IMG/VR virus record: IMGVR_UViG_3300045988_127881
Source: a virus
Strand: one strand, 5' to 3'
DNA length: 64,000 nt
Shown: positions 15,509 through 39,294 of the stretch, one piece after another
Layout: the number at the start of each line of letters is the position of its first letter
Numbering within the stretch: position 1 is the first letter of the stretch
Notes under the pieces: model-generated
Seen by the model: only the letters and a program-made list of their open reading frames with translations
Databases searched by the model: none
Told to the model about the DNA's origin: nothing
Position numbers and translations under genes: made by a program

Positions 15509-16354
15509 ATGAAAACAACCCTTTATGAAGCATACAGGAAAAAATACCCTAACTATGCAGATAAAACCAAAGAAAGGTTCGTAACCTCCACAGGGTGCGA
15601 TTTTACTTGGGGTAACATGACCAAGTCTAACCTTTACGACTATGTCAGCTATCTAAAGACGGTCATGGCAAAGTCGTCAGCACGCACAATGTGCGCAATG
15701 CTAAAATCTGTCTTGCGCACCTACGAAGATGAGATTACGCTACCAAAAAATTGGGAAGATTCCATCTACGTCAAAAAGGAGGCTTCTCAGCAAGTATTCC
15801 TCTCCGACGACGAAATCAAAATGGTTTCTAACTACAACCCAACAACCGAAAAAGAGCGCATCGTGAAAACAATGTTTCTCTTGGGTTGCCTTACAGGGGC
15901 AAGACACTCCGACTTCTTGAAGTTCTCTAAAGCAAATATCACGCAGGAGGGCTTTTTAAGATACGTGTCCATCAAGACGCACATCGAGGCTATTGTCCCC
16001 ATAGCACCAATGGTTAACAGGCTGATTGACGACTTGTCTGCCATCAAAGACACTTCTATGGCCGACACCACATTCAACCGAATATTACGGGATATTTGCC
16101 AAAGTGTGGGCATCGACTCCGAATGCACGCTTTACAGGAGGGGCGAATTTTCCACGTCCAACAAATGTTGCTTTGTGTCATCACACGCTGCACGCAGGTC
16201 TTTCGCCACAAATCTCTACCTTAGAGGGGCTGACCTTTACTCCATCTCCAAAATGATGGGACATTCCTCTGTCGACATGACAGCTGGATATATTTGTTGC
16301 GGACTACGAAACCTCTCACCCGAAGTTAAAGATTACTTTGAACAATTTTGTTGA
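15509..16354 (+). CDS. Tyrosine recombinase (281 aa, no arm-binding N-domain); second recombinase in the window
   Basis: Catalytic signature TGARHSD ... SHAARRSF ... GHSSVDMTAGYI (R, H-x-x-R, H, Y). Confidence 0.85.
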   Translation: MKTTLYEAYRKKYPNYADKTKERFVTSTGCDFTWGNMTKSNLYDYVSYLKTVMAKSSARTMCAMLKSVLRTYEDEITLPKNWEDSIYVKKEASQQVFLSDDEIKMVSNYNPTTEKERIVKTMFLLGCLTGARHSDFLKFSKANITQEGFLRYVSIKTHIEAIVPIAPMVNRLIDDLSAIKDTSMADTTFNRILRDICQSVGIDSECTLYRRGEFSTSNKCCFVSSHAARRSFATNLYLRGADLYSISKMMGHSSVDMTAGYICCGLRNLSPEVKDYFEQFC

Positions 16355-16374
16355 ACCATAAACTTATAAACAAT

Positions 16375-16650
16375 ATGTTGACATCAGACCTTAAAGCAAA
16401 AGAGGCTATCTACGAGGTCGTAGAGCCTCGCTATTTTGAGAAAAGTGTTTCGCTCTCCGAGGAGGACGAGCAAGGTTCTATATACGATTTCTTGAAAGGA
16501 ATCGGCACAGAAGAATACACTGAATGGCTCGCCGAGCACGAGAGCGACTACTATTTTCAGGTAGTCCGCGTAGACGGCTCTTTTTACGCTGTCGCCTATG
16601 AAGATTATACAACACCTGCATGGGCAGTCGAAATAGAACCTGTAAAATAG
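16375..16650 (+). CDS. Hypothetical acidic protein (91 aa)
   Basis: First ATG at 16375 within track ORF 16348..16650. Confidence 0.55.
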   Translation: MLTSDLKAKEAIYEVVEPRYFEKSVSLSEEDEQGSIYDFLKGIGTEEYTEWLAEHESDYYFQVVRVDGSFYAVAYEDYTTPAWAVEIEPVK

Positions 16651-16656
16651 TGTAAT

Positions 16657-17037
16657 ATGGACAGACAACTAATGTTTTATTTCGGAACGAACGGGAGCAG
16701 TGATTATGTCCCCATTCCTGTTCGAGAGGGGGACATCTTGCCACTTTACCCTGAACACGATGCATGGGAAAATTTAGAACGCACCTTGTCCAATTTAGCA
16801 ATAAAAAAATATACTTTTTTCCGTGGCTATTTTCTGGGCACAGAGTGGACACTGTATCTCAAACCATGGTCGGTAGATGATGGAAGATGCGGAAGTTTTA
16901 CATCTCTATTCTGGGAGGGGGCGCACACCATTGAAGAAATTGAAGCTTTTATAAAGAAAACTCCATTTTTGCAGCGTCAGTTTAGTAAGCCTATTGATAC
17001 AAATAGATTTTGGACGGTGAACCATGCTGGCACTTAA
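16657..17037 (+). CDS. Hypothetical protein (126 aa)
   Basis: ORF track. Confidence 0.6.
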   Translation: MDRQLMFYFGTNGSSDYVPIPVREGDILPLYPEHDAWENLERTLSNLAIKKYTFFRGYFLGTEWTLYLKPWSVDDGRCGSFTSLFWEGAHTIEEIEAFIKKTPFLQRQFSKPIDTNRFWTVNHAGT

Positions 17038-17039
17038 AA

Positions 17040-17066
17040 AAGCCCCACCGTCACGGGGTGGGGCTT
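17040..17066 (+). terminator. GC-rich hairpin terminator
   Basis: AGCCCCACC / GGTGGGGCT directly after the stop at 17037. Confidence 0.6.
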
Positions 17067-17103
17067 ACCACGAGATTTAACTCTCGACTCTTTATCTACA
17101 ATA

Positions 17104-17183
17104 GTAGAAATTATGCTCATTAGAGCGTTTCAATCCTCAACCCTTGATAGGGTTGACAACGCAAAGGTAAGCATAATTTCTAC
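17104..17183. repeat. Perfect 14-bp inverted repeat enclosing the CRISPR-repeat-like unit
   Basis: GTAGAAATTATGCT (17104..17117) and AGCATAATTTCTAC (17170..17183). Confidence 0.9.
17127..17160 (-). CRISPR. Solitary CRISPR repeat-like unit, type I-C-like architecture (no array, no cas)
   Basis: Minus strand reads GTTGTCAACCCTATCAAGGGTTGAGGATTGAAAC: 8-bp stem, 4-nt loop and a GGATTGAAAC tail, as in I-C repeats recalled from memory. Confidence 0.5.
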
Positions 17184-17230
17184 AAGTTGTATCAATCAAA
17201 TCAATTTTATCACTAAAAAAATCAGAAATT

Positions 17231-17812
17231 ATGACGACCAATTTATCTTTATCAAAGGTCTTTGACACACTCGTAAAACGCGAAGATGGCATATTGCTTT
17301 GCAAACACAGCGAAATCTATTGTGGTGCATTCGGCTCTCAACTCTGCGATTGGGATATTCTTATCAAAGATGACTACGGCCAGCTTTGTCACCCCAACGA
17401 ACAACTCAACTATTCTGATGCCTGGTTAGAGGACATGTACGAAAAAGTCGAGCCAGGCGACGAGGACGACGATACGCTCTATATGAACACCGATTTTGGC
17501 GAAGATAAAATACCCGTTCGCAAACTTCACGAAATCCCATCAGACATATTGCAGACTTTCGTCGATGTCGAACATGGCATCAATCGTGACGAAATCTGCA
17601 TTACAGACGATGAGGTTTTGCATGGCAAGGTATACCAAGCACCATGCTGCATACAGCAGTCGTACCCAAATCGTCCATACGAAGATGCCTTCCTTTTCGT
17701 AGGTGAGGACGGAGAAGAAATCTACATCAATCGCACATGCCCATTCTTTGAAGATGAAAGCAGAGATGTGTTTGAAGAAATAACAAAAGAGGAATTTGAA
17801 ACATTCTGCTAA
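17231..17812 (+). CDS. Hypothetical acidic protein (193 aa)
   Basis: ORF track. Confidence 0.65.
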   Translation: MTTNLSLSKVFDTLVKREDGILLCKHSEIYCGAFGSQLCDWDILIKDDYGQLCHPNEQLNYSDAWLEDMYEKVEPGDEDDDTLYMNTDFGEDKIPVRKLHEIPSDILQTFVDVEHGINRDEICITDDEVLHGKVYQAPCCIQQSYPNRPYEDAFLFVGEDGEEIYINRTCPFFEDESRDVFEEITKEEFETFC

Positions 17813-17829
17813 TATTAAAACCGGCAAAC

Positions 17830-18114
17830 ATGAACGATAATATTATCACCCAGTTAGGGTACAAAATTGAAATGAGCATTAGCGGTTATTACCGCCTAAT
17901 GAAAAACAATGAGGTCATCTATGACGACTCTGCCTGTGACGACCTGAACGAAGATTATGACACCGCATCATCTTTCTTTGAAAGCTACCTTAATGAGTAT
18001 GCAAAAGTATACGAATATAAAGGGCACAATGTCGTGGAAGATGAGAAATTCTACCACATCGGAAAAGAGAGCTTCAACAAGTCAGAGTGGACTCTTGACG
18101 AAGCAATAGATTAA
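17830..18114 (+). CDS. Hypothetical acidic protein (94 aa)
   Basis: ORF track. Confidence 0.6.
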   Translation: MNDNIITQLGYKIEMSISGYYRLMKNNEVIYDDSACDDLNEDYDTASSFFESYLNEYAKVYEYKGHNVVEDEKFYHIGKESFNKSEWTLDEAID

Positions 18115-18153
18115 GTAACAAACGCTGCGCTATCGGCATGACGGGCAACTATT

Positions 18154-18660
18154 ATGGCATACTTAAATAAGGCACAGTACGATTACAGGAGAGAGTCGGC
18201 AGCAGCACGCAATATCAGTAACGAAGAAATTGCAGTGCAGAATGGCATGACAGAGAAACAGGCCGAACTTATCAGCGAACTTGCAGCACAACGCCACGAG
18301 ATGCACTGCAACATAGATAGACTCGTGTGCGACGGCTCTTATGACAAGATAGGCGAAACACTCGCGTTAACAAACGAAGAGATAAAGATGTCGGGGCTGC
18401 CACCCGTATGCGGATTGGACGATTTGTCTCACTGTCTATCAGAGACAATGGCTTACATCGATATAGACGACCTTGATTTGCTGTTCGAGACTGTACAGTT
18501 CCCCGATGATGATGACGAGAGAGAGCAAAAAATCGCGGAAGAATCCGAGAGAATATATGACGAGTGGGAAAACCTGAATGGCAATATAGAGAAATATCTC
18601 GCCATGATTGATAAAAAGTACGGCACTTCTTGGTGTCCTACTGGTGCTTTGAGGGTCTAA
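18154..18660 (+). CDS. Hypothetical acidic protein (168 aa)
   Basis: ORF track. Confidence 0.65.
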   Translation: MAYLNKAQYDYRRESAAARNISNEEIAVQNGMTEKQAELISELAAQRHEMHCNIDRLVCDGSYDKIGETLALTNEEIKMSGLPPVCGLDDLSHCLSETMAYIDIDDLDLLFETVQFPDDDDEREQKIAEESERIYDEWENLNGNIEKYLAMIDKKYGTSWCPTGALRV

Positions 18661-18675
18661 ATCATCAAAATAAGT

Positions 18676-18702
18676 AACTCGGTGGCCTGCTACCACCGAG
18701 TT
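18676..18702. terminator. Hairpin between convergent genes
   Basis: AACTCGGTGG / CCACCGAGTT between 18660(+) and 18710(-). Confidence 0.6.
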
Positions 18703-18709
18703 CCACACT

Positions 18710-19228
18710 TCAACCATTCTGCCTGCGCTTGTGCTTTACGTAAAGTGGGCAGTCCTTACACGTCAACGGCAAGTAGGTGTGCACAGTCTTTTCCTCCTTG
18801 TCCACCTCGTCTTTTTTCATCTGAGTAAGGTCGGCATATTTCATCAATATGTCTGCACGCTTCGGGTCATTCGCTGGCATCTTGAAAGCTATACGCACAA
18901 GTTCGCTCATCACATCTTCCTTGCTCATCTGTCTGGCGGCATCTATGCTGTCAAATTCTTCCTGTATGGCATTATCCACAGCCTTGCTCGCCTCCTTGTC
19001 CGCTTTCTTCTTTGCCTTCATTATGTAGTTGGCAAAAACCTCCCTGTCTACTATTTCTTTCATTTTTTGCTTGTGCCATTCGTCACTATATGCAGCACCA
19101 GGGCCGTATATCAGCACATAGGCATCTTGCTCTTTCCAGCCCATCAAAGTCAAGTCGGCCATAGCCCTCTCGCGCGCGTCAAGCCCTATTTTGCCGTTTG
19201 CGGTCTTAAATCCTTTCGTATAATCCAT
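18710..19228 (-). CDS. Possible small terminase subunit-like protein (172 aa)
   Basis: Pattern ...YSDEWHKQKMKEIVDREVFANYI ... SKEDVMSELVRIAF...KRADILMKYADL resembles Terminase_2-type TerS by eye. No TerS lies next to terL. Confidence 0.35.
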   Translation of the reverse strand: MDYTKGFKTANGKIGLDARERAMADLTLMGWKEQDAYVLIYGPGAAYSDEWHKQKMKEIVDREVFANYIMKAKKKADKEASKAVDNAIQEEFDSIDAARQMSKEDVMSELVRIAFKMPANDPKRADILMKYADLTQMKKDEVDKEEKTVHTYLPLTCKDCPLYVKHKRRQNG

Positions 19229-19281
19229 ATTTCAAAAAATAAAGTAGTACTTTTGTAGCGTCAATCTTCATTGACACCAAA

Positions 19282-39197: not shown

Positions 39198-39267
39198 TGG
39201 CACATTAGGTAATGGCCGCAAGGTCAGGGCTTTGCAATAGTGCTGGGGTTCGATGCCCCGTGTGCCA
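39198..39267 (+). ncRNA. tRNA-like element 1 (70 nt), non-canonical body
   Basis: Perfect 7-bp acceptor stem TGGCACA/TGTGCCA. T arm TGGGG-TTCGATG-CCCCG. Only a weak anticodon-like arm (loop TTGCAAT, GCA). No normal D arm; GGCC-GCAA-GGTC hairpin instead. Confidence 0.45.
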
Positions 39268-39294
39268 CTAATATTAACTAAAACCTCTAAGAAC

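Follow-up and report, generated by a model that had tools for sequence, protein, structure and literature searches.

The window, the whole 64,000-nt stretch of phage DNA that was analysed, carries terminase, portal, tape-measure and integrase genes and belongs to a phage that occurs in human gut metagenomes. Its large terminase shares 56% identity with the large terminases of Bacteroides and Phocaeicola phages, and we infer a host at the level of the order only (Bacteroidales). The locus of interest is an intergenic gap of 193 nt (17038..17230) flanked by plus-strand genes, in which an earlier note on this DNA had placed a solitary type I-C-like CRISPR repeat, presented on an inverted-repeat stem. 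The sequence elements that it described are present: a 34-mer at 17127..17160 (+), which contains an 8-bp stem (TCAACCCT/AGGGTTGA) with a 4-nt loop and has no second copy in the window when up to three mismatches are tolerated, and a perfect 14-bp inverted repeat with arms at 17104-17117 and 17170-17183. As the note had also stated, no CRISPR array was detected in the window, where the scan for cas and other genes covered about 20 ORFs. None of the neighbouring ORFs matches an entry of PHROG, Pfam or the PDB sequences, and they include no recognisable acr gene or other function. No CRISPR family of Rfam reached its gathering score in the window, nor did any appear at E values up to 1 over its whole length.

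A predicted minus-strand small-RNA cassette

The minus strand from about 17160 to 17036 is most likely a self-contained small-RNA gene of about 120 nt in a temperate Bacteroidales phage, judging from the elements that follow one another along it: a promoter -7 box (TACCTTTG), a I-C-like hairpin with the tail GGATTGAAAC, a type V-A (Cas12a) repeat, a short hairpin and a terminator. The RNA of this strand is predicted to fold into five separate hairpins (z = -6.07). The box (17162..17169, minus strand), read from the sequence, follows the Bacteroidota -7 consensus TAnnTTTG (PMC7366714), and stops 4 nt short of the conserved repeat unit, so that transcription is predicted to start near 17157-17160. 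The first three bases of the 34-mer (17158-17160) are variable among relatives, and the conserved I-C-like unit is 17127-17157. The intrinsic terminator (AAGCCCCACC..GGTGGGGCTT plus a T-run, at about 17036..17066) is directly adjacent to the stop codon at which the convergent plus-strand gene ends. A terminator does adjoin the repeat, as previously claimed, but the call, at 17040-17066, is on the minus strand only, where the T-run also lies.

The same cassette occurs in 21 IMG/VR contigs with 91% mean column identity, and the genes on both sides of it differ among these contigs. A pattern search that crossed the two repeat types returned 51 viral contigs from at least nine metagenomes, with the same order of parts; the unique cassette variants number 45 in all. 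The TA and TTTG of the -7 box are constant among 20 variants while its two middle bases vary. A perfect TAnnTTTG is present on the sense strand of 36 of the 45 unique cassettes and on the antisense strand of none (background 0.05 per 110 nt), and in 26 cassettes the sense-strand box stands 24-26 nt before GATTGAAAC. A run of four T follows downstream in 44/45 cassettes, and the terminator stem of one variant (L137) has a compensatory change of a C-G to an A-U pair. No record with the window's cassette was found among GenBank phages or PLSDB plasmids, and none of ten divergent cassette variants was found in GenBank phages. The cassette was likewise not found in the 9.9 kb examined of Bacteroides phage BF1-TP2, a relative of the L167 contig, and the first 40 kb of LoVEphage contain no V-A-type stem motif and only two isolated matches to the tail (GGATTGAAAC/GAATTGAAAT).

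The proposal that the 14-bp inverted repeat presents the I-C-like repeat on a stem is not supported: its left arm is part of the Cas12a repeat, and its right arm stands on the 5' side of the predicted promoter box. The right arm together with ACAAGTTGTAT (17170..17192, minus strand) reproduces the 3' part of the V-A repeat in inverted and degenerate form; this copy is probably untranscribed on the sense strand and marks the border of the conserved cassette. Changes in the arms are uncompensated, with pairs 12-90, 13-89, 15-87 and 19-83 each broken in a single sequence; 12 of 20 alignment rows differ at column 16, which RNAalifold leaves unpaired; and the inverted copy is missing from more distant cassettes. 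The inverted repeat was rejected both as a selected stem, for want of compensation and because it is lost in relatives, and as a MITE-type element, being present in a single copy per genome and, again, lost in relatives.

Repeat-like units of two CRISPR types

The V-A repeat mimic (17094..17126, minus strand) consists of GCTCTAATGAGCAT followed by AATTTCTACTATTGTAGAT, an exact motif match. The latter 19-mer (minus strand, 17112..17094) recurs without change at the 3' end of hundreds of genuine type V-A arrays, and the motif AATTTCTACNNNNGTAGAT is matched at 17094-17112 (minus strand) with 0 mismatches, the chance expectation being 0.13 at up to two mismatches. A 5' mini-hairpin (GCTC/GAGC) precedes the Cas12a handle stem (UCUAC/GUAGA), and the unit has all parts of a Cas12a handle, namely AAUUUCUAC, a loop of 3-5 nt and GUAGAU at the 3' end; some Cas12a orthologues use the handle AAUUUCUACUAUUGUAGAU. 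At least 120 genome loci have repeats that end in the 19-mer, most of these loci being arrays with a period of 63-66 nt and many lying in Bacteroidales, including Prevotella and Bacteroidaceae; the 19-mer is also identical to the direct repeat of an engineered Cas12a array. Among the phage cassettes it is nearly invariant, with the handle stem unchanged in 21/21 variants. The mimic measures 33 nt in the window, and that of the L128-type variant 36 nt. Compared with 66 host repeat types, its 5' part shares not even the first 6 nt with any (0/66), and in place of the full 36-nt host-like repeat this part keeps the mini-hairpin only. By this sequence comparison, the host-like portion of the unit is the predicted Cas12a-binding 3' part only.

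Directly upstream on the same strand, the I-C-like repeat mimic GTCAACCCTATCAAGGGTTGAGGATTGAAAC (17127..17157) has a stem of 7-8 bp, a 4-nt loop and an 11-nt handle, which is AGGATTGAAAC in the window and TGGATTGAAAC in most relatives. The I-C layout was taken to be a 6-8-bp stem closed by a short loop and followed immediately, on its 3' side, by an 11-nt (T)GGATTGAAA(C/T), with a total length of about 31-37 nt, and the stem, loop and handle of the window unit correspond to it. The resemblance stated by the earlier note holds up, in that the hairpin and (T/A)GGATTGAAAC handle match, in layout, published repeats of Bifidobacterium type I-C and an array repeat of Bacteroides coprophilus; the source of the latter (GTCGCACCCTGCGTGGGTGCGTGGATTGAAAC) states no subtype for it. 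The unit is also single, as had been claimed, but it is hardly solitary, being fused directly to the V-A repeat.

An array-shaped pattern search of metagenomes returned a single array (L142), whose five repeats have a related stem and an identical tail, on a contig without cas genes. A search of 185,579 species genomes with the exact stem-plus-tail pattern found no host array. The best Rfam match of the unit, CRISPR-DR9 on the minus strand, scores 19.3 bits against a gathering score of 45, a test of little power here because the genuine L142 array gets no more than about 18 bits. A type I-B repeat without the hairpin has the tail GGATTGAAAC at its end as well; the assignment to subtype I-C therefore rests on layout, and this part of the cassette could instead mimic a related repeat processed by Cas5 or Cas6. 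An I-C-like hairpin is not an ordinary component of V-A loci, since none stands beside the V-A repeats of the 120 genome loci.

The stems themselves covary. Within the I-C stem, pair 6-19 is AU in 10 sequences and GC in 9, and pair 7-18 is CG in 15 and GC in 4; the covariation score of the I-C stem and V-A mini-hairpin taken together is 0.205, compared with 0.088 for shuffled alignments (0/500 reach the observed score) and at most 0.088 when the pairing partners are slid. The G-U pairs in the stems are valid on the sense strand only and on the plus strand turn into A-C mismatches. Subfamilies that have entirely different stems retain the 12-nt tail GTGGATTGAAAC. Lesions of the I-C tail occur in a few copies (a deletion in L130, a G to T change in L132). 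Other phages have I-C-only cassettes with their own promoter box and terminator, so that the I-C unit stands alone elsewhere, and some cassettes have two I-C units. The Cas12a part is better supported than the I-C part.

Predicted function and alternative readings

The cassette RNA is interpreted as an anti-CRISPR decoy of the Racr/Cracr kind directed against two host systems, to which we assign a probability of roughly 0.6 on the basis of sequence comparison. The predicted RNA would be produced during infection or lysogeny and would mimic the precursors of host crRNAs. Cas12a would bind its own repeat and cut there, and would then stay loaded with a self-folded, non-targeting tail; the freed 5' piece, or the intact RNA, would present the I-C hairpin and handle to Cas5c/Cascade and draw it into non-productive complexes. 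Cutting by Cas12a, with the I-C hairpin being offered to Cascade, would thus allow one transcript to yield two decoys that compete with immune crRNAs. Competing decoys have been demonstrated experimentally for RacrIC1 and RacrVA1-3 (PMC10651486) and for CracrVA1 (bioRxiv 10.1101/2024.10.29.618823). A minus-strand repeat decoy was one of the two possibilities raised by the earlier note, and it fits the promoter, the terminator and the G-U pairs.

The spacer-like tail that follows the V-A repeat (17062..17093, minus strand), delimited by folding and alignment, consists of AAAGA, a hairpin (GTCGAGAGTTAAATCTCG) and TGGTAAGCC, and its first nucleotides after GTAGAT (AAAGAGTCGAG...) might serve as a partial guide for Cas12a. 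As a regulator of the Cracr/CreR type, the cassette would then send Cas12a to silence, without cutting, the cas12a promoter or that of another host defence. This alternative is unlikely, even though a single repeat with a spacer-like tail and a rho-independent terminator has the architecture of CracrVA1 and several subfamilies share an A-rich beginning of the tail. Neither the window nor the 120 V-A genome loci nor any other locus fetched contains a match to the tail comprising TTTV plus a seed of 9-12 nt, and a full-length search of IMG/VR with the tail returned only the cassette itself. In close relatives the leading A-run is displaced by 1-4 nt, and the seed would be displaced with it; the tail hairpin of some members starts directly 3' of GTAGAT. 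Across subfamilies it is the tail hairpin that is conserved rather than the tail sequence, and the hairpin survives a two-sided change from A-U to U-G in L137, L139 and L141. In the other direction, the 1,090 V-A spacers of loci L008-L127 include no convincing match to the window or its relatives, the best being 19-20 nt with one mismatch.

The tail of the window is homologous to a second, degenerate I-C-like repeat of its relatives, in which a hairpin is followed by GGATT or GAATT; this combination is found in six subfamilies (L155, L156, L157, L161, L165 and L167), and L157 aligns with the window, in a comparison by eye, save for a deletion of 2 nt. The cassette might accordingly be read as a functional I-C mini-array with the Cas12a repeat as its single spacer. 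Cas5c would cut at both hairpins to release a crRNA with an 11-nt handle, a guide of 33-38 nt and a 3' hairpin (expected as 5'-(A/U)GGAUUGAAAC, about 35 nt and the hairpin), and Cascade would be sent to V-A repeat DNA in host arrays or in the decoys of rival phages, for cutting or transcriptional silencing. The first I-C repeat and the second hairpin are 33-35 nt apart in L155, L161, L165 and L157 and 38 nt apart in the window, and such distances fall within the usual range of I-C spacers; one cassette (L191) has the same frame around an ordinary-looking 32-nt filler. A working mini-array of this kind is nonetheless improbable. The PAM-proximal 14-17 nt of the supposed guide match 0/66 host V-A repeat types, not even over the first 6 nt, and the 5' part of the V-A unit conserves a hairpin rather than a sequence. 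Viral mini-arrays are recognised by at least two repeats of the same type and a spacer matching related viruses, whereas here the second repeat is decayed in the window and missing in the L152 and L166 groups, and what is inserted is a V-A repeat. Neither the fillers, that of L191 among them, nor the tails have counterparts elsewhere in IMG/VR. A wider and doubtful conjecture is that the element is no passive decoy but a cross-wired I-C mini-array, with the Cas12a repeat in the spacer slot and Cascade aimed at V-A repeats, and that modular RNAs built of repeats of two or three CRISPR types may be more general among Bacteroidales phages. Some of the relatives begin with a AUUGAAAU/C tag, which we take to resemble the tags of Cas6-processed crRNAs. 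If such modular RNAs exist, several systems would be disarmed from one transcript.

It is also improbable that the Cas12a repeat is the only mimic, with the upstream hairpin acting as a 5' stabiliser or processing signal whose similarity to I-C repeats is a matter of inheritance or coincidence. No part of the cassette varies less than the V-A 19-mer, and the I-C tail has the lesions in L130 and L132 noted above; furthermore, no host I-C array with the window's stem was found in genomes, and the Rfam support for the I-C part is below threshold. Against this, GTGGATTGAAAC is kept despite wholly different stems, and a plain stabilising hairpin would not need the tail; moreover, there are cassettes of I-C units only, with their own promoter box and terminator, and cassettes with two I-C units.

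That there is no RNA gene at all, the locus being instead a plus-strand cis element (a terminator, an attenuator or a read-through anti-repeat RNA), a recombination site or a functionless array remnant, is very improbable: the flanking genes are on the plus strand, that strand also folds strongly (z = -9.0, largely through the 14-bp inverted repeat), and the hairpin loop flips between reverse complements, pointing to DNA hairpin or cruciform activity, but the inverted repeat is uncompensated and lost in relatives, and conservation of the cassette is strong in spite of exchanges of the genes beside it. The anti-repeat RNA that the earlier note had considered for plus-strand transcription is disfavoured by the strand bias of the boxes (36/45 sense, 0/45 antisense), by terminators confined to the minus strand and by the A-C mismatches that replace G-U pairs.

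Relation to known RNA anti-CRISPRs and viral repeats

RNA anti-CRISPRs are a recent discovery, and the two-system decoy proposed here recurs, as a cassette, in dozens of uncultured phage contigs. If the reading is correct, phages can stack RNA decoys as modules, the cassette includes a compact natural inhibitor of Cas12a that would be of interest for the control of Cas12a tools, and its targets indicate which CRISPR systems actually limit Bacteroidales phages of the gut.

The closest parallel is with the Racrs, RNA anti-CRISPRs that are solitary repeat units, of which RacrIC1 and RacrVA1-3 inhibit their own systems (Camara-Wilpert et al. 2023, PMC10651486). The window's cassette resembles them as an intergenic repeat copy on a mobile element (a phage), outside arrays and with its own predicted promoter within 250 bp, that mimics a host repeat and would be expected to sequester Cas proteins; SRUFinder also lists, in gut viral genomes, V-A units with the end ...AATTTCTACTATTGTAGAT. 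It differs from them in joining class 1 (I-C) and class 2 (V-A) repeats back to back in one promoter-to-terminator unit, in its inferred host phylum (Bacteroidota), in its predicted promoter of the sigma-ABfr type and in having no recognisable acr gene adjoining, acr genes being frequent neighbours of Racrs. The main text of PMC10651486 mentions neither Bacteroidota units nor units of mixed type, and the searched literature yielded no published RNA anti-CRISPRs from Bacteroidota phages.

CracrVA1 is a V-A repeat-like unit that Cas12a processes to a 19-nt handle plus a guide and that competes with crRNAs (Liu et al., bioRxiv 10.1101/2024.10.29.618823). Like it, and like viral crlRNAs and the host CreR/CreA, the cassette has one V-A unit, a spacer-like tail and a rho-independent terminator; unlike CracrVA1, which requires a 10-nt seed match to the cas12a promoter, it has no target that could be found, and its tail is kept as a hairpin. 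Viral mini-arrays such as those of SPV1 and SPV2 have spacers that match related viruses (reviewed in PMC11656645). The cassette shares with them the succession of a repeat, a short insert and a (degenerate) repeat, on a virus apparently devoid of cas genes, and several of its relatives have two I-C-like repeats; it departs from them in that the insert is a repeat of another CRISPR type and in that insert and tail have no IMG/VR matches. Co-encoded crlRNA units are reported always to be directed at the same CRISPR type, in a study that lists Pseudomonadota, Bacillota and Actinomycetota only (bioRxiv 10.1101/2024.10.29.618823). What appears to be new in this phage is the combination of putative I-C and V-A mimics in a single transcript unit, the published examples having one CRISPR type per locus.

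A minus-strand unit with two repeat copies

The I-C-like CRISPR repeat that the earlier note described as solitary, a 34-mer, is found at 17127..17160 (plus strand), with the 8-bp stem and 4-nt loop ascribed to it, in an intergenic gap of 193 nt as claimed; it occurs once in the window even at three mismatches. The I-C layout stands, but the repeat is not isolated, as a Cas12a (type V-A) repeat adjoins it directly on the minus strand. On this strand, a promoter box (TACCTTTG) fitting the Bacteroidota -7 consensus TAnnTTTG (PMC7366714) lies 4 bases upstream of the conserved repeat unit and is followed by the I-C-like repeat (17157 to 17127, a hairpin and tail), the V-A repeat (17126 to 17094), a short hairpin (17088 to 17071) and a terminator (17066 to 17036). 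The terminator noticed previously, a hairpin (17040-17066), is called on the minus strand only, because that strand carries the T-run. RNA beginning at 17160 is predicted to fold as five separate hairpins that match these parts (z = -6.07). Sequence analysis shows that the cassette is conserved and has the layout of a small transcription unit on one strand: copies of CRISPR repeats of two types, followed by a structured tail and a terminator.

The 34-mer is bracketed, as stated, by a perfect inverted repeat of 14 bp (17104-17117 and 17170-17183), but this does not hold up as a stem presenting it: the left arm is part of the V-A repeat, and relatives do not preserve the inverted repeat, having no compensating change in the left arm for any in the right. 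Read onwards on the minus strand, the left arm becomes AGCATAATTTCTACTATTGTAGAT, whose final 19 bases form the 3' end of a Cas12a repeat. A mismatch-free match to the motif AATTTCTACNNNNGTAGAT lies at 17094-17112 (minus strand); even at two mismatches, only 0.13 matches would be expected by chance. The exact 19-mer is a repeat end at at least 120 genome loci; those listed are mostly arrays with a period of 63-66 nt, many of them in Bacteroidales, Prevotella and Bacteroidaceae, and none of the 120 has an I-C-like hairpin beside its V-A repeats. The same sequence serves as the Cas12a direct repeat of an engineered guide array. The V-A unit is host-like only in its Cas12a-binding 3' part: the first six bases of the 5' part are common to none of 66 host repeat types, and nothing in that part is kept except a small hairpin. 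Five bacterial genome loci (L057, L061, L073, L089 and L093) have one V-A repeat followed, after 30-60 nt, by a terminator-like hairpin, resembling host CreR-type units or prophage units of the RNA anti-CRISPR (Racr) type. More solitary Cas12a-repeat units may exist in GenBank phages (KF114879, KF114880, KX656785, MK170447 and MK496734), among them Leptospira phages LE1 and Lin_34, Methanosarcina virus MetMV and a capybara microvirus, whose intergenic DNA has short matches of high identity to the V-A part.

For the I-C-like copy, no Rfam family reaches its gathering score within the window, and a permissive scan of the gap gives a single weak match, to CRISPR-DR9 on the minus strand (19.3 bits; gathering score 45), in which the model agrees with 12 of 12 tail bases (GAGGAUUGAAAC). 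A genuine five-repeat array on a metagenomic contig (L142, repeat CTTTCAACCCCCTTAATTGGGGGTTGTGGATTGAAAC), with a related stem and an identical tail, itself scores only ~18 bits, so the low score of the phage copy means little. Published type I-C repeats of Bifidobacterium share its layout (a 6-8-bp stem, a short loop and the 11-nt handle TGGATTGAAA(C/T)), as does an array repeat (GTCGCACCCTGCGTGGGTGCGTGGATTGAAAC) from Bacteroides coprophilus, a species of gut Bacteroidales; the source gives no subtype for the latter repeat. The host array sought with the phage's exact stem was not found among species-representative genomes, and the tail by itself also closes a hairpin-less repeat of type I-B; it is therefore the layout, and no cognate host array, that justifies the label "I-C-like".

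The phage and its close relatives

Genes for a large terminase, a portal protein, a tape-measure protein of 2,478 amino acids and an integrase are present in the window. The terminase shares 56% identity with its counterparts in Bacteroides phage LoVEphage, Bacteroides phage BI-TP1 and Phocaeicola phage PV4-TP1; taken with the promoter type, this suggests a temperate phage that infects gut Bacteroidales. Six small plus-strand ORFs (16348-19258), in a run between the integrase (15509-16354) and tape-measure genes, have no PHROG or Pfam matches, and the ORF content of this region differs among related phages. Accessory regions of this kind often house anti-defence genes. Elsewhere (39198-39268, plus strand), ARAGORN predicts a tRNA-like gene whose anticodon has four bases (cagg) and to which no amino acid is assigned.

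Related phages do carry the element: IMG/VR scans with pieces of it recovered the whole cassette from 21 contigs. Contigs of 61-67 kb from human gut metagenomes carry the identical cassette in the same protein-coding neighbourhood. Among relatives the genes on either side vary, and the cassette therefore behaves as an independent module. Its 20 distinct versions align with a mean column identity of 91%. All keep the TA and TTTG of the -7 box around CC, TC or TA, and the V-A 19-mer is invariant except for one loop base in one relative (L005). The short hairpin persists despite changes on both sides of a pair, as does the terminator in L137. The loop of the I-C-like hairpin (17145-17148) alternates between ATCA and TGAT, exact reverse complements, in L002, L003, L007 and other relatives, and is TGAC in L005; stem and tail are unchanged where the loop flips in otherwise near-identical cassettes, which looks like hairpin-loop inversion at the DNA level.

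A diverse family of cassettes

A type-crossing pattern (a GATTGAAAY tail, then a Cas12a handle within 35 nt) matches 51 viral contigs from at least nine metagenomes, giving, with the earlier loci, 45 unique cassettes that differ widely in sequence and share a common order of parts. The I-C-like stem varies (CAACCC, CAGCC, CAAGCC, CAAGTCC, CAGCCC, CAGGC or CGCC, with matching 3' arms); after it, in every case, come (T/A/C)GGATTGAAAC and then, with nothing between, the V-A unit. In an alignment of 21 representatives, 87% of cells are paired in the named structure, and its covariation score of 0.205 is reached by none of 500 shuffles (0.088) and exceeds that of slid partners (at most 0.088); pair 6-19, for example, is AU in ten and GC in nine, and the Cas12a stem does not vary. 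On the opposite strand, eight cells that are G-U would read as A-C mismatches. Upstream, 36 of 45 cassettes have a perfect TAnnTTTG on the sense strand (the window's minus strand), and none has one on the antisense strand; 26 of those 36 have it 24-26 nt before GATTGAAAC, which would place the predicted transcription start at about the repeat copy's first base. A T-run lies downstream in 44 of 45.

In six subfamilies the V-A unit is followed by a hairpin and then GGATT or GAATT, which looks like a second, degenerate I-C repeat; by our reading of the sequences, the window's short hairpin is homologous to the version in L157, bar a 2-nt deletion. Other viral cassettes (L181, L182, L188, L191, L194, L196 and L199) have only the I-C-like unit, which has a TAnnTTTG box and a terminator of its own. 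L191 retains the I-C frame of two hairpins, in which an ordinary filler of 32 nt replaces the V-A repeat; this filler has no other match in IMG/VR and holds scraps of a reverse-complement V-A repeat. Six loci (L152, L154, L159, L168, L171 and L174) have two I-C-like repeats separated by only 20 nt (GGATTTAAAC being the tail of the first), then a truncated V-A repeat (GAAC and TAATTTCTACTATCGTAGAT), a long unstructured tail and a terminator. In six others (L153, L160, L166, L170, L177 and L186), GGAATTGAAAT/C immediately follows the promoter-like box TACCTTTA, so an 8-nt AUUGAAAU/C tag may form the start of the RNA. Tags of this type are those of Cas6-processed (I-B or III) crRNAs, and this one, preceding the I-C and V-A units, could be a third mimic. 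Three viral loci (L189, L193 and L198) have at least two repeats in one array-like stretch, with a common GTGGATTGAAAC tail and quite different stems.

Possible function and comparison with known systems

We favour, at a probability of about 60%, a decoy function in which the cassette RNA imitates host crRNA precursors. Cas12a would bind the handle, cut just upstream of it, and stay loaded with a self-folding tail that has no detectable target; the freed 5' piece would retain the I-C hairpin and handle for Cas5c/Cascade, and both cleavage products would compete with immune crRNAs. This mechanism has been demonstrated experimentally for solitary I-C and V-A repeat units (PMC10651486) and in part for CracrVA1, a guide-dependent Cas12a unit (bioRxiv 10.1101/2024.10.29.618823). 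A guide-dependent repressor of the Cracr kind is less probable: the tail has no PAM-plus-seed match in the window or any fetched locus, and it conserves structure, not seed register. The 33-38-nt spacing and the second I-C-like hairpin might suggest an I-C mini-array whose spacer is the Cas12a repeat, but none of the host V-A repeats matches the would-be guide at its seed end, which makes this reading unlikely. That the I-C-like hairpin is a mere stabiliser is improbable, as this would leave unexplained both the conservation of the 12-nt tail amid changing stems and the existence of I-C-only cassettes. The promoter, terminator and G-U evidence is strand-specific: it agrees with the minus-strand repeat decoy proposed in the earlier note and contradicts its plus-strand anti-repeat alternative, or any other plus-strand or non-RNA function.

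The window's cassette is absent from GenBank phages and PLSDB plasmids, and ten divergent variants are likewise absent from GenBank phages. The joining of class 1 and class 2 repeat copies in one unit appears new, no description of it having been found in the literature searched: the main text of the Racr paper mentions neither mixed-type units nor Bacteroidota (PMC10651486), and in the Cracr study, whose list does not include Bacteroidota, co-encoded units are reported always to address one same type (bioRxiv 10.1101/2024.10.29.618823). Its halves have precedents, as the RNA anti-CRISPR action of solitary repeat units is already known for I-C and V-A (PMC10651486), V-A units of gut viral genomes that end in the window's 19-mer are already in the SRUFinder output, and the published architecture of CracrVA1, a single V-A repeat, a tail and a terminator, is like the V-A half of the window's cassette.
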